Below, piece after piece: positions 9,001 through 15,000 of a stretch of DNA of 64,000 bases (the first letter of the stretch is position 1; each line of letters begins with the position of its first letter). Position numbers: made by a program. The stretch is from Escherichia coli (GTDB lineage Bacteria; Pseudomonadota; Gammaproteobacteria; Enterobacterales; Enterobacteriaceae): assembly GCF_041248615.1 (NCBI RefSeq), contig NZ_CP158426.1; one strand, given 5' to 3'.

Positions 9001-12000
9001 ATGGGTGTTTACAAGAAGTTCAACTACAGGGAAGATTGGGCCAACTAAACCACTTGAAGATCTTTTAAATAAACATGGTATACCGATTATTTATCGATAA
9101 GGAGTGATAGTGTGAAACTCAAACCGATTGGTGACTTTTTAAACAAAAATGGGTTTATAAAAAATGGTAACAATGATTTTTATAAAGTTCATGATAAGTT
9201 TGTAAATTGTATAAATTTTCAAAAAAAGAGTACAGGTGATATTTTTTTTATAAACACAGGTGTTCATCCTGTGTTCGAAAATTTTTGCAATGAACCACCG
9301 AAAAAAGAAATAGATTGTTACATCCGTAACCGTGTGTGTGATGGACTAAGTATATCTTTGCTGCATTCTTTTGAAGGTAGTGAGTTTGTTATCAGTGAGA
9401 TAAAAAACAAAGCGTTTTGTTTTTTTGAATACTTTGATTCATTGAATAAAATATTCGATGCTATTCGTGTTGTAGATATTGAAGAGAGAAATATTTGCGA
9501 TGAGCTAAGTGGTGTAAGCAGCGTAAGATTAGCTTTGATGTGTATGAACTACCAGTATGAGAAAAAAAAATTTAGCCTTGTTTCTGATTTTGCGAACTAT
9601 GGTCTTGCTATATCTAGAGGCCCGGTACCGAAAAAAGCATTGGATTTGCCCCTATATTTCCAGACACCTGTTATCACTTAACCCATTACTGGCCTGCTGC
9701 CGCAGATATTCCCGTGGCGAGCGATAACCCAGTGCACTATGCGGATGCCATTCGTTATAATGCTCGAACGCCTCTGCAAGGTTCTTTGCTGCCGTTAACC
9801 CGTCTGGTTTAGGCATGATACTGATGTAGTCACGCTTTATCGTTTTCACGAAGCTCTCTGCTATGCCGTTACTCTCCGGACTCCGCACCGCCGTGTTCTT
9901 CGGTTCAAGCCCCAATATCCGGGCAAACTGCCGTGTTTCATTAGCCCGGTAGCATGAACCATTATCCGTCAGCCACTCTACTGGAGACGCCGGAAGCTCG
10001 TTGCCGAAGCGGCGTTCCACCGCTCCCAGCATGACGTCCTGTACTGTTTCACTGTCGAAGCCGCCCGTAGTGACTGCCCAGTGCAGTGCCTCACGGTCAC
10101 AGCAGTCCAGCGCGAACGTGACTCGCAGTTTTTCTCCGTTATCACAGCGGAACTCGAACCCGTCAGAGCACCATCGTTGATTGCTTTCTTTCACGGCCAC
10201 TTTGCCAGTATGTGCCCGTTTCGATGGCGGTACAGCGGTTTTTCGCTCAAGCAACAGCGCATTCTGGCGCATGATCCGGTAAACACGTTTGGCATTGATC
10301 GCAGGCGTACCATCAAGTTCGGCCTGTCTGCGAAGCAGCGCCCATACCCGACGATAACCATACGTGGGCAGCTCTCCGATAACATGGTGTATACGGAGAA
10401 GCACATCCGTATCATCTGAGTGACGGCTGCGGCGACCATCTTTCCAGTCATCGGTTCGTCTGAGAATTACGTGCAACTGCGCACGCGACACCCGGAGACA
10501 ACGGCTGACTAAGCTTACTCCCCATCCCCGGGCAATAAGGGCGCGTGCGCTATCCACTTTTTTGCACGCCCGTATTCAACGGCTTCTTTAAGGAGTTCAT
10601 TTTCCATCGTTTTTTTGCCGAGCAGGCGCTGGAGTTCTTTAATCTGCTTCATGGCAGCAGCAAGTTCAGAGGCAGGAACGACCTGCTCTCCTGCGGCCAC
10701 AGCAGTAAGACTTCCCTCCTGGTATTGCTTGCGCCAGAGAAATAACTGGCTGGCTGCCACACCGTGTTGCCGGGCAACAAGGGAGACCTTCATTCCCGGT
10801 TCAAAACTCTGCTGAACAATAGCGATCTTTTCCTGTGTAGTACGCCGTCTGCGTTTCTCCGGTCCTAAGACATCAATCATCTGCTCTCCAATGACTAGTC
10901 TAAAAACTAGTATTAAGACTATCACTTATTTAAGTGATATTGGTTGTCTGGAGATTCATGGGGCCAGTCTAAGCATTTAAGGATATGATAAAAATAACAG
11001 AGTGATACCTAATCCGGTGTAATACTTGCTGCCTGTGTACCGCGAAGATTAACGGCCGGGAGGAAACTATTCTCTACAACCGGGACGCCACAGGCCGCCT
11101 GGCAGAAGTCATCACGCCGGAAGGCAAAACGCAGTATGCGTATGACAAATCCGGCAGGCTGACGGGTATCTTCAGCCCGGACGACACATCACAGCGCACC
11201 GGCTATGAAGAACGCGGGCGGGTGAATGTCACCACTCAGGGCAGGGAAAGATCATCCAAAGTACACTTTTTGTACTAAATAATTCGCATTTTATGTTTAA
11301 AAATTGAGATATTCCTCATTACCTAAAGCTGTTTTTATTGCTTATACATGATCAAATACTCCTTACATAATTAAGGAGAACAAAATGGAACTTAAAAAAT
11401 TGATGGAGCATATTTCTATTATCCCCGATTACAGACAAGCCTGGAAAGTGGAACATAAATTATCGGATATTCTACTGTTGACTATTTGTGCCGTTATTTC
11501 TGGTGCAGAAGGTTGGGAAGATATAGAGGATTTTGGGGAAACACATCTCGATTTTTTAAAACAATATGGTGATTTTGAAAATGGTATTCCTGTTCACGAT
11601 ACCATCGCCAGAGTTGTATCCTGTATCAGTCCTTCAAAATTTCACGAGTGCTTTATTAACTGGATGCGAGATTGCCATACTTCAGATGATAAAGACGTTA
11701 TTGCAATCGATGGAAAAACACTCCGGCATTCTTATGACAAGAGTCGCCGCAGGGGAGCGATTCATGTCATTAGTGCGTTCTCAACAATGCACAGTCTGGT
11801 CATCGGACAGATCAGAACGGATGAGAAATCTAATGAGATTACAGCTATCCCAGAACTTCTTAACATGCTGTATATTAAAGGAAAAATCATCACAACTGAT
11901 GCGATGGGTTGCCAGAAAGATATTGCAGAGAAGATACAAAAACAGGGCGGTGATTATTTATTCGCTGTAAAAGGAAACCAGGGGCGGCTTAATAAAGCCT

Positions 12001-15000
12001 TTGAGGAAAAATTTCCACTGAAAGAATTAAATAATCCAGAGCATGACAGTTACGCCATTAGTGAAAAGAGTCACGGCAGAGAAGAAATCCGTCTTCATAT
12101 TGTTTGCGATGTCCCTGATGAACTTATTGATTTCACGTTTGAATGGAAAGGACTGAAGAAATTATGTGTGGCAGTCTCCTTTCGGTCAATAATAGCAGAA
12201 CAAAAGAAAGAGCCAGAAATGACGGTCAGATATTATATCAGTTCTGCTGATTTAACCGCAGAGAAGTTCGCCACAGCAATCCGAAACCACTGGCACGTGG
12301 AGAATAAGCTGCACTGGCGTCTGGACGTGGTAATGAATGAAGACGACTGCAAAATAAGAAGAGGAAACGCCGCAGAATTATATTCAGGGATACGGCACAT
12401 CGCTATTAATATTTTAACGAATGATAAGATATTCAAGGCAGGGTTAAGACGTAAGATGCGAAAAGCAGCCATGGGCAGAAACTATCTCGCGTCAGTCCTT
12501 GCGGGGAGCGGGCTTTCGTAATCTTGCCCTGCGTTAACCTCCCCTCCTTGACACCACGCTTTTGTCTACATTCTACGCAAACGGCAACTTTTATAACCAG
12601 TGTAAAAATAACGTGCCGCAATAGTCATACCTATTAATGGTAAAAAGCTGTCACAATTCATAAAAAACCTTAATATACGCCACCCTAAACATAACCAGCG
12701 TTAATGTAAGGTTTTTGTGTGGACTGGCTTCTTGATGTTTTTGCTACCTGGCTCTACGGCTTAAAAGTAATCGCGATAACGTTAGCGGTCATCATGTTCA
12801 TCAGCGGGCTGGACGATTTTTTTATTGATGTCGTCTACTGGGTACGCCGCATTAAACGCAAGTTGAGTGTTTATCGCCGCTACCCGCGAATGAGTTACCG
12901 CGAACTGTATAAACCAGATGAAAAACCGTTAGCGATTATGGTTCCGGCGTGGAATGAAACGGGCGTCATCGGCAATATGGCCGAGCTGGCGGCGACCACG
13001 CTCGACTATGAAAACTATCATATCTTTGTTGGCACCTACCCCAACGACCCCGATACTCAGCGTGATGTTGACGAAGTGTGCGCTCGCTTCCCGAATGTGC
13101 ATAAGGTAGTCTGCGCGCGTCCTGGCCCCACCAGCAAAGCCGACTGCCTGAACAACGTGCTGGACGCCATCACCCAGTTTGAGCGTAGCGCCAATTTCGC
13201 TTTTGCTGGTTTTATTCTGCATGACGCCGAAGACGTAATTTCACCGATGGAATTGCGTCTGTTCAACTATCTGGTCGAGCGTAAAGATCTGATTCAGATC
13301 CCGGTGTATCCGTTCGAACGCGAATGGACGCACTTCACCAGCATGACTTACATTGATGAGTTTTCAGAACTGCATGGCAAAGATGTTCCGGTGCGTGAAG
13401 CCCTCGCCGGACAAGTGCCCAGCGCAGGCGTCGGCACCTGTTTCAGCCGCCGCGCCGTGACCGCACTGTTAGCTGACGGTGACGGTATTGCTTTCGACGT
13501 GCAGAGTCTTACTGAAGATTACGACATTGGTTTCCGCCTGAAAGAAAAAGGTATGACGGAAATTTTTGTCCGTTTTCCGGTGGTGGACGAAGTCAAAGAA
13601 CGCGAGCAGCGTAAATTTTTACAGCACGCGCGGACGTCAAACATGATCTGCGTGCGCGAATATTTCCCCGATACCTTTTCGACTGCGGTTCGACAAAAAT
13701 CTCGCTGGATCATCGGCATTGTTTTCCAGGGCTTTAAAACCCACAAATGGACCTCCAGCCTGACGCTGAACTACTTTCTCTGGCGCGACCGCAAAGGGGC
13801 AATCAGTAACTTTGTCAGCTTCCTCGCGATGCTGGTGATGATCCAGCTTTTGCTGTTGCTGGCGTATGAAAGTTTGTGGCCCGATGCCTGGCATTTCCTT
13901 TCTATTTTCAGCGGCAGCGCATGGTTAATGACTCTGCTGTGGCTAAACTTTGGCTTGATGATTAACCGCATCGTGCAGCGGGTGATTTTCGTTACTGGCT
14001 ACTACGGCCTGACGCAGGGGCTGCTATCTGTCCTGCGTCTTTTCTGGGGCAACCTGATTAACTTCATGGCCAACTGGCGCGCGTTAAAACAGGTACTTCA
14101 ACACGGCGATCCACGTCGTGTCGCGTGGGATAAAACAACGCATGACTTCCCCAGCGTGACTGGCGATACCCGCTCGTTGCGTCCGTTAGGTCAAATCCTG
14201 CTGGAAAATCAGGTCATCACTGAAGAACAACTCGATACAGCACTGCGTAATCGCGTCGAAGGTCTACGCCTGGGCGGTTCAATGCTGATGCAGGGGCTGA
14301 TTAGCGCCGAACAGCTGGCACAGGCGCTGGCAGAGCAAAACGGCGTGGCGTGGGAGTCGATCGACGCCTGGCAGATCCCTTCATCACTGATTGCCGAAAT
14401 GCCGGCCTCCGTGGCGCTGCATTATGCAGTACTGCCGCTGCGTCTGGAAAATGATGAGTTAATTGTCGGCAGTGAAGATGGTATTGACCCGGTTTCGCTG
14501 GCGGCCCTGACGCGTAAAGTCGGACGCAAAGTGCGTTACGTCATTGTTCTGCGGGGACAAATTGTCACGGGGTTACGCCACTGGTATGCGCGCCGACGCG
14601 GTCACGATCCGCGGGCAATGTTGTACAATGCGGTTCAGCATCAGTGGCTCACGGAACAGCAGGCCGGTGAAATCTGGCGGCAATATGTGCCGCATCAGTT
14701 CCTGTTCGCCGAAATACTGACCACACTCGGTCATATTAATCGTTCAGCAATTAACGTGTTGTTATTGCGCCATGAACGTAGTTCTCTGCCGCTCGGCAAG
14801 TTTTTGGTCACCGAAGGCGTTATCAGCCAGGAAACGTTGGATCGCGTCCTGACAATTCAACGCGAATTACAAGTTTCGATGCAATCACTATTACTCAAAG
14901 CAGGTTTAAACACAGAACAGGTTGCGCAACTGGAGTCCGAAAATGAAGGAGAATAACCTTAATCGCGTCATCGGATGGTCTGGTTTACTGCTGACGTCTT

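Follow-up and report, generated by a model that had tools for sequence, protein, structure and literature searches.

In the 64,000-nucleotide stretch of Escherichia coli DNA analysed here (assembly GCF_041248615.1, contig NZ_CP158426.1; the window hereafter), an H-repeat, that is, an insertion sequence (IS) of the ISAs1 family, lies behind a series of Rhs sequences and, but for a 45-bp tail, directly in front of the upstream region of nfrB. We conclude with high confidence that this region, 11250-12720, forms the distal end of a common and already described accessory island: a vgrG-linked Rhs locus of clade IV with a probably old H-repeat at its border, next to which the nfrB region has been kept, and which is separate from the rhsD locus. 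Locus, position and clade have been on record since 2009, and close to half of the sequenced E. coli have this arrangement. Specific to this strain or its lineage are an IS2 insertion that no other genome has at this site and a 71-bp deletion beside the ISAs1 end, which ~190 genomes share.

The identity of the locus

The window is 100% identical to positions 3843666-3907665 of the chromosome of E. coli NRZ14408 (NZ_LT599825.1), and the context upstream of position 1 is that of the annotation of this record. A previous, sequence-only reading of the window had left to outside comparison what precedes position 1 and whether cus genes flank it. They do: in the annotated record cusCFBA and cusRS flank the island, and behind them come a VgrG gene, a DcrB-related gene and an Rhs gene of 4860 bp, whose last 2.3 kb form the opening of the window (Table 1). 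At the other end, the same reading had placed the end of an Rhs element and its H-repeat ~180 bp upstream of nfrB, in good agreement with our measurement, since the IS ends 187 bp, and the stop codon of its transposase lies 197 bp, upstream of the nfrB start at 12719.

Jackson et al. (2009, BMC Genomics 10:584; PMC2935791) listed eleven Rhs loci in E. coli. In their numbering, position 3 is the ybbA/ybbB (selU) interval, which is the rhsD site, and position 4 is the nfrB/cusS interval, which holds the sole clade IV rhs of the species (their Table 3). Position 4 also served these authors as their example, drawn from seven strains, of C-terminal tips that have been displaced and of core fragments lying downstream. 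The locus in the window lies between cusS and nfrB, and it has a long YD/RHS core, the core-end motif, a variable tip, and dissociated cores and tips downstream. Its core would belong to clade IV, as suggested by the locus itself and by the 93.9% nucleotide identity of the 212-bp core fragment (11031-11242) to the Rhs gene that O157:H7 and O113:H21 carry there.

We then consider how widespread the arrangement is, all population counts having 5426 complete E. coli genomes as their denominator. The junction between ISAs1 and nfrB was searched with a query of 361 bp, and a genome was counted when at least 80% of it was covered. The ISAs1 end stands beside nfrB in 2478 genomes, and the empty, K-12-type junction of cusS with nfrB is found in 2326. 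The junction of ybbP with rhsD is present in 2861 genomes, so that it is absent from ~47%. The architecture of the island also occurs in strains of serotypes O113:H21, O157:H7 and O6:H16. The rarity that the sequence-only reading had implied for the arrangement does not survive these counts, neither at nfrB nor at the rhsD site.

Table 1. Coordinates (window numbering), strand and supporting evidence of the annotated features
Feature	Position	Strand	Evidence or remarks
Main prePAAR/PAAR-Rhs effector gene, C-terminal 732 codons	1..2303	+	Annotation; gene of 1619 amino acids, start ~2.56 kb before the window
Small open reading frame, putative immunity gene (from position only)	2308..2784	+	Directly after main Rhs
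Orphan Rhs, 776 amino acids, C-terminal tip different from that of the main gene	2903..5233	+	Pfam RHS_repeat 6e-47
Small open reading frame, putative immunity gene (from position only)	5230..5763	+	After orphan Rhs
PAAR-domain fragment, pseudogene	7513..7890	+	Pfam PAAR_motif 5.7e-12; annotated as partial
H-repeat left-end remnant, solo, 91 bp	7868..7958	+	82% identical to 11237-11327; direct-repeat family D4
Dissociated Rhs core end with C-terminal tip, orphan toxin fragment	8402..9100	+	TIGR03696 Rhs_assc_core 1.2e-18; annotated as partial RHS
DUF4304 gene, likely immunity-type	9112..9681	+	Pfam DUF4304 5e-10; last codons replaced by IS2
IS2 copy, 1331 bp	9641..10971	-	95.6% identical to K-12 IS2A; 5-bp target duplication AGCAT
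Dissociated Rhs core fragment, cut off by the ISAs1 element	11031..11241	+	Pfam RHS_repeat 1.8e-15; 94% identical to main-Rhs DNA
H-repeat, ISAs1-family insertion sequence (ISEc1-like), 1290 bp	11242..12531	+	Ends from comparison of two copies in different contexts
ISAs1-family transposase open reading frame, intact, 378 amino acids	11385..12521	+	Pfam and NCBIfam
Island tail, 45 bp	12532..12576	.	Alignment; IS end and tail separated by an additional 71 bases in most other lineages
nfrB upstream region, 142 bp	12577..12718	+	All but 7 bp of the 149-bp cusS-nfrB spacer of K-12; identical to K-12
nfrB, cyclic di-GMP-activated glycosyltransferase, intact	12719..14956	+	Pfam GT2 and MshEN; annotation; GTG start
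nfrA	14943..17915	+	Annotation; 14-bp overlap with nfrB; intact
ybcH	17916..18806	+	Annotation
mnmH(selU)-ybbP spacer, 712 bp, no Rhs	54320..55031	.	mnmH ends at 54319, ybbP ends at 55032
AgrB-type antisense RNA	54381-54469	-	Rfam AgrB, 53.6 bits
dinQ-like open reading frame, 27 amino acids, MKTFLDKVLIVLKALIALLELIRQFIE	54731-54814	+	In the ybbP-mnmH spacer
ES036-type repeat	54952-54994		In the ybbP-mnmH spacer

Contents of the island

VgrG, an Eag (DcrB/DUF1795) chaperone and a PAAR-Rhs protein are encoded together at the island. The VgrG protein contains the Pfam domains Phage_GPD, Gp5_C and Phage_base_V, the gene following vgrG is a member of the DcrB family, of the Eag-chaperone type (Pfam DcrB, 1.4e-27), and the 1619-amino-acid Rhs protein contains PAAR_motif (5e-16), DUF6531 and RHS_repeat in ten stretches. 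A prePAAR_I domain is also matched in this protein, weakly and below the 25-bit cut-off (23.3 bits, 8e-5), and the core-end motif '...PNPCGYVDPLGL' is present. From the anatomy of the island and the known behaviour of these families we infer an effector set for type VI secretion, made up of a VgrG spike, a DcrB/Eag-type chaperone, a prePAAR-PAAR-Rhs toxin and a downstream immunity open reading frame (ORF), whose products would serve in delivery by the type VI secretion system (T6SS) and in immunity.

Downstream of the main Rhs gene the island is a succession of partial copies. The orphan Rhs repeats ~2 kb of the main core at an offset of 2960 bp and with 97-99% identity (direct-repeat families D1-D3), and the core fragment that precedes ISAs1 corresponds to the main Rhs around amino acids 975-1028. 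Such orphan cores, tips and immunity-type genes would be the pattern expected from C-terminal displacement through recombination between repeated cores.

Two further observations concern the turnover of the island. The H-repeat remnant at 7868-7958, directly after the PAAR fragment, points to an earlier event within the island, either the insertion or the deletion of an H-repeat. The closest relative, isolate 362 (NZ_OW967178.1), which is 100% identical across the junction with nfrB, has lost the two complete toxin/immunity pairs together with the body of its main Rhs gene. Its PAAR region, annotated as partial, now adjoins the orphan section further downstream, as though a deletion had occurred between two PAAR-homologous regions.

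Borders of the island and the IS2 insertion

The island is 18,304 bp long in this strain and replaces at most 26 bp of K-12 sequence, these being the final codons of cusS plus 7 bp of the spacer. Homology to K-12 breaks off within cusS, 19 bp short of its end, and is picked up again at window position 12577. As a consequence, the C-terminus of CusS is altered by the border of the island, reading ...VIMLPERE here (482 amino acids) against ...VITLPA in K-12 (480 amino acids). From the end of cusS to vgrG there are 737 bp, and at the other end the island stops 142 bp before the start codon of nfrB.

The IS2 copy within the island, an element of the IS3 family, is flanked by two copies of the target duplication AGCAT, at 9636-9640 and 10972-10976, and its terminus matches that of K-12 IS2A, to which it was compared over 1238 bases. 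Its breakpoints, as well as the intact form of the DUF4304 gene (540 bp), were set by comparison with isolate 362, and place the insertion 12 bp before the DUF4304 stop codon. An IS2 at this site is found in 1 of the 5426 genomes, NRZ14408 alone, and this same single genome covers at least 80% of window positions 9000-15000; that no other genome covers this region fully is due to IS2 alone. The IS2 looks like a true strain-specific transposition and not like an assembly error.

The H-repeat and its junction with nfrB

Elements of the ISAs1 family (ISfinder) are ~1.2-1.5 kb long, contain one long ORF and have terminal inverted repeats starting with CAGGG. The element at 11242-12531 has this size, a single ORF and CAGGG repeats. 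Its transposase matches DDE_Tnp_1_assoc (7e-34) and DDE_Tnp_1 (3e-29) in Pfam, and transpos_ISAs1 in NCBIfam with 411.8 bits against a cut-off of 70 (E = 1.7e-123). Aligned over 1294 bases with the yhhI-bearing H-repeat of the K-12 RhsB element, the element of the window shows 96.4% identity. The left inverted repeat (CAGGGAAAGATCATC) and the complement of the right one (CAGGGCAAGATTACG) match at 11 of 15 positions. A left inverted repeat beginning at 11237 (CAGGGCAGGG...) was considered and rejected in favour of 11242 through the comparison with K-12 yhhI, the preceding CAGGG being part of the Rhs core. The feature that had been described as starting at 11250 is hence a real element, the coordinate falling ~8 bp inside the IS, whose edge is at 11242.

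On the right side of the element, the sequence in O113:H21 (for instance strain FWSEC0010), O157:H7 and O6:H16 consists of the inverted repeat followed by 71 bp, the 45-bp tail and the nfrB upstream block. The right-side sequence is the same in strain 2017.02.04CC, where only the 3' end of the IS is kept, IS1 having interrupted ISAs1. In the lineage of the window the 71 bp are absent, and the tail is flush with the right end of ISAs1 (12531/12532). The junction including the 71 bp is found in 2292 genomes versus 2478 with any junction of ISAs1 with nfrB, which leaves ~190 genomes with the deletion, a figure that is approximate given that the thresholds of the two queries differ. The left flank of ISAs1 varies too: it lies in the Rhs core at about amino acid 1028 here, at about amino acid 630 in O113:H21, and in AT-rich, non-Rhs sequence in O6:H16.

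Because the junction on the nfrB side is shared across the lineages compared, the H-repeat would be one old insertion at the edge of the island, which interrupted a dissociated core fragment and was inherited with the island. Deletions or recombination would then have taken place on both flanks, possibly together with exchange among H-repeat copies, and such IS-adjacent events are the probable cause of the loss of the 71 bp and of the variation of the left flank. We also considered whether the 71 + 45 bp to the right of the IS are themselves Rhs core: a frame reading 'HYDLLG...FHYD' pointed that way, but blastn against the main Rhs gave no match and blastx against four Rhs proteins gave nothing better than E = 0.08, and they were not called Rhs.

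A recent arrival of ISAs1 upstream of nfrB in this strain would have the intact transposase ORF in its favour. Yet the junction on the side of the right inverted repeat is common to O113:H21, O157:H7 and O6:H16, ~2478 genomes in total, and the element has no target duplication, so that a recent transposition is very improbable. Besides, the transposase ORFs at the nfrB locus are all intact at 378 amino acids, in the O113:H21, O157:H7 and O6:H16 copies as well as in the window, and the ratio of nonsynonymous to synonymous polymorphism (pN/pS) of the copies at the same locus in other lineages relative to the NRZ14408 copy is 0.10-0.19.

The junction could, in principle, also be an artefact. H-repeats are multi-copy, being found at a median of 4 places per genome, and repeats of this kind are a classic cause of mis-joins; a mis-assembly at 12520-12720 had indeed been raised as a possibility. 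It is excluded for all practical purposes, as the junction is 100% identical in the independent assemblies NZ_OZ547043.1 (361 bp) and NZ_OW967178.1 (1830 bp), the ISAs1 end lies beside nfrB in ~2478 genomes, and the IS2 nearby is flanked by a clean target duplication of 5 bp.

rhsD at ybbP-selU is a separate locus

The sequence-only reading had taken the K-12 map to have cusS beside nfrB and rhsD-ybbC-ylbH-ybbD between ybbP and selU, and this is right: cusS and nfrB are 149 bp apart in K-12, and rhsD and its companions occupy the ybbP-selU interval. Its measurement of 712 bp for this interval in the window is exact, and its statement that the usual rhsD site is empty stands in part. No Rhs is found there, but the site is not blank. 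It contains a predicted dinQ/agrB-like type I toxin-antitoxin module (Table 1), with a second CAGTCCTCATCTAGCA box near 54643. Since K-12 matches only the flanking gene ends, the rhsD element and the 712-bp spacer are alternative occupants of the site. The exact 712-bp, Rhs-free spacer is found in 1319 of the 5426 genomes, and further genomes have shorter Rhs-free spacers.

Two explanations had been proposed for the filled site near nfrB, an Rhs element at a different locus or a rearrangement. The first one is what we find, the different locus being position 4 (nfrB/cusS). The second, in which rhsD was moved from ybbP-selU into the cusS-nfrB interval, draws its sole support from the coincidence of one filled and one empty site in this genome, and its probability is close to nil. 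The main Rhs shares 24% amino-acid identity with K-12 RhsD and has a different architecture, with prePAAR/PAAR domains and upstream vgrG and Eag chaperone genes. In O157:H7 strain SS TX 313-1 both sites are filled, one as vgrG-DcrB-Rhs-ISAs1-nfrB and the other as ybbP-Rhs core-ylbG-mnmH, and K-12 shows the converse of the pattern in the window. Both states of both loci are common, and the vacant site has its own spacer, without an Rhs scar. Furthermore, Jackson et al. (PMC2935791) list two distinct loci of different clades. With its low identity to RhsD and its location away from ybbP-selU, the Rhs of the island is not an rhsD element.

Our results show that rhsD at ybbP-selU is a separate, independently polymorphic locus of clade I that is missing from this strain. 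Given that O157:H7 has both loci and K-12 has the opposite pattern to the window, the two are independent presence/absence polymorphisms, as judged from the example genomes K-12, NRZ14408 and O157:H7 rather than from a cross-table of all genomes. The K-12 map is not the norm of the species at either Rhs site, and finding Rhs at cusS-nfrB but none at ybbP-selU should not be taken to mean that a rearrangement has occurred.

The nfrB upstream region and nfrBA-ybcH

Of eight aligned strains, some carrying the island and some not, seven have the 142-bp block in front of nfrB unchanged; the eighth, an island-free strain, has a single base change. The retention of this block means that nfrBA-ybcH keeps its native upstream region. 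The structure of the nfrBA-ybcH operon is as described before (PMC8669469), and a single-copy nfrB::lacZ fusion at att-lambda was reported there to be active at a low level, with induction in post-exponential phase and reduced activity in flhDC and fliA mutants. Genomic SELEX (systematic evolution of ligands by exponential enrichment) located a binding peak of the RNA polymerase holoenzyme in the nfrB-cusS spacer of K-12 (PMC5493296). Most likely, nfrBA-ybcH also keeps its own published FliA-activated, low-level promoter, and its regulation is unchanged.

ISAs1 might nonetheless alter the expression of nfrBA-ybcH, and hence the N4-type phage receptor glycan, through read-through from the transposase or through a displaced control sequence. 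This effect would perhaps be stronger here, where the 71-bp deletion puts the IS end 187 bp from nfrB versus ~258 bp. The transposase gene points in the same direction as nfrB, with no intrinsic terminator predicted in between; the predicted RNA fold of 12490-12725 is unremarkable (z = -1.8), with no stem and U-run before the conserved block. The 71-bp deletion is moreover specific to a minority lineage, and the nfr operon is normally expressed at a low level, so that small inputs could matter. We nevertheless regard an effect on expression as unlikely: the nfrB-proximal 142 bp are identical to K-12, where the co-directional cusS ends 149 bp upstream and provides the same chance of read-through without any island; the reported nfrB::lacZ fusion was active at att-lambda, away from the upstream genes; and the IS end has no outward promoter-like site. 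A co-directional IS lying 187-258 bp upstream is thus unlikely to have a large effect on a FliA-dependent operon for the N4-receptor glycan.

Also improbable is a role of the element itself, in which the H-repeat and the 71-bp deletion could feed transcription into nfrBA-ybcH or insulate it. If this were true, island-bearing and K-12-type lineages would differ in the surface glycan made by NfrB and so in their sensitivity to N4-like or glycan-dependent phages. Related to this is the idea of a retained transposase activity, for instance one driving flank deletions that turn over orphan Rhs tips, which would fit with purifying selection on the intact transposase (pN/pS ~0.1-0.2) and with its fixed position in ~46% of genomes. 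As a separate observation, nfrA has an internal stop in the island-bearing O157:H7 strain SS TX 313-1, and nfrB has one in the island-bearing strains O6:H16 M9682-C1 and 2017.02.04CC.

Contrary evidence

Several results weigh against the interpretation of the region as the edge of an old T6SS-type Rhs island beside a conserved nfrB upstream region. The toxin tips and the presumed immunity ORFs have no family match in Pfam or NCBIfam. A scan of the + strand for the sigma-70 consensus found no site in 12522-12719, and a sigma-28 scan (TAAAGTTT-N10-12-GCCGATAA) gave a best score of 10/16, which is background, with 501 such matches in the window, so that the nfrB promoter is not placed by either scan. 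The divergence among the ISAs1 copies at the nfrB locus is similar to their divergence from K-12 yhhI, which lies elsewhere; gene conversion or replacement among H-repeat copies may have taken place at the locus.

Finally, there is no target-site duplication around ISAs1, as the left flank (...ACTCAGGG) and the right flank (CGTTAACC) share no repeat, and the right flank found in other lineages (CCTGCTCA) has no repeat in common with the left flank either. As a consequence, a simple, single insertion of ISAs1 is inferred from the shared right junction and not demonstrated. Direct repeats are often absent in the ISAs1 family. The missing duplication fits with later deletions of the flanks and is not disqualifying for the family.

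Other features of the window

Beyond the two Rhs sites, a tRNA-Arg gene (argU, 19799-19872) lies directly beside envY (18989-19750); the DLP12 prophage with appY and ompT, which is there in K-12, is absent. ybcF, encoding a carbamate kinase (~33202-34108), is annotated as frameshifted. A match to the small RNA STnc480 is found at 41293-41359 (84.9 bits), and an IS1397 copy starts near the end of the window (63579-64000).

Comparison with known systems

The K-12 rhsD element (Jackson position 3, clade I) resembles the island in having an Rhs with YD repeats, a variable tip and downstream fragments. It differs in that no vgrG, Eag or PAAR genes are annotated between ybbP and rhsD, and in its location at another locus that is independently present or absent.

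The H-repeat of the window can be compared with the K-12 yhhI H-repeat of the RhsB element, with which it shares a 378-amino-acid transposase, inverted repeats of the CAGGG type and a place downstream of an Rhs core extension. In contrast to it, the copy in the window is at another Rhs locus, has a clade-IV core fragment as one flank and has no direct repeats.

As to the proteins, class I prePAAR effectors of the T6SS with Eag chaperones, such as Rhs1 of Serratia or Salmonella, are what we take to be the comparable system. The likeness consists of prePAAR_I (weak and sub-cut-off here), PAAR, DUF6531 and RHS repeats, together with a DcrB-family gene and vgrG immediately upstream; the difference is that the tips at this island match no family and that the island is known from its sequence.

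The closest known counterpart is Jackson position 4 itself. The text of that paper (PMC2935791) makes no mention of transposases or insertion sequences, and the differences are at strain level only: the particular tips, the extra IS2, the 71-bp deletion and the solo H-repeat end at 7868-7958. The flanking genes, the long, vgrG-linked Rhs and the trail of dissociated cores and tips downstream of it are the same in both.

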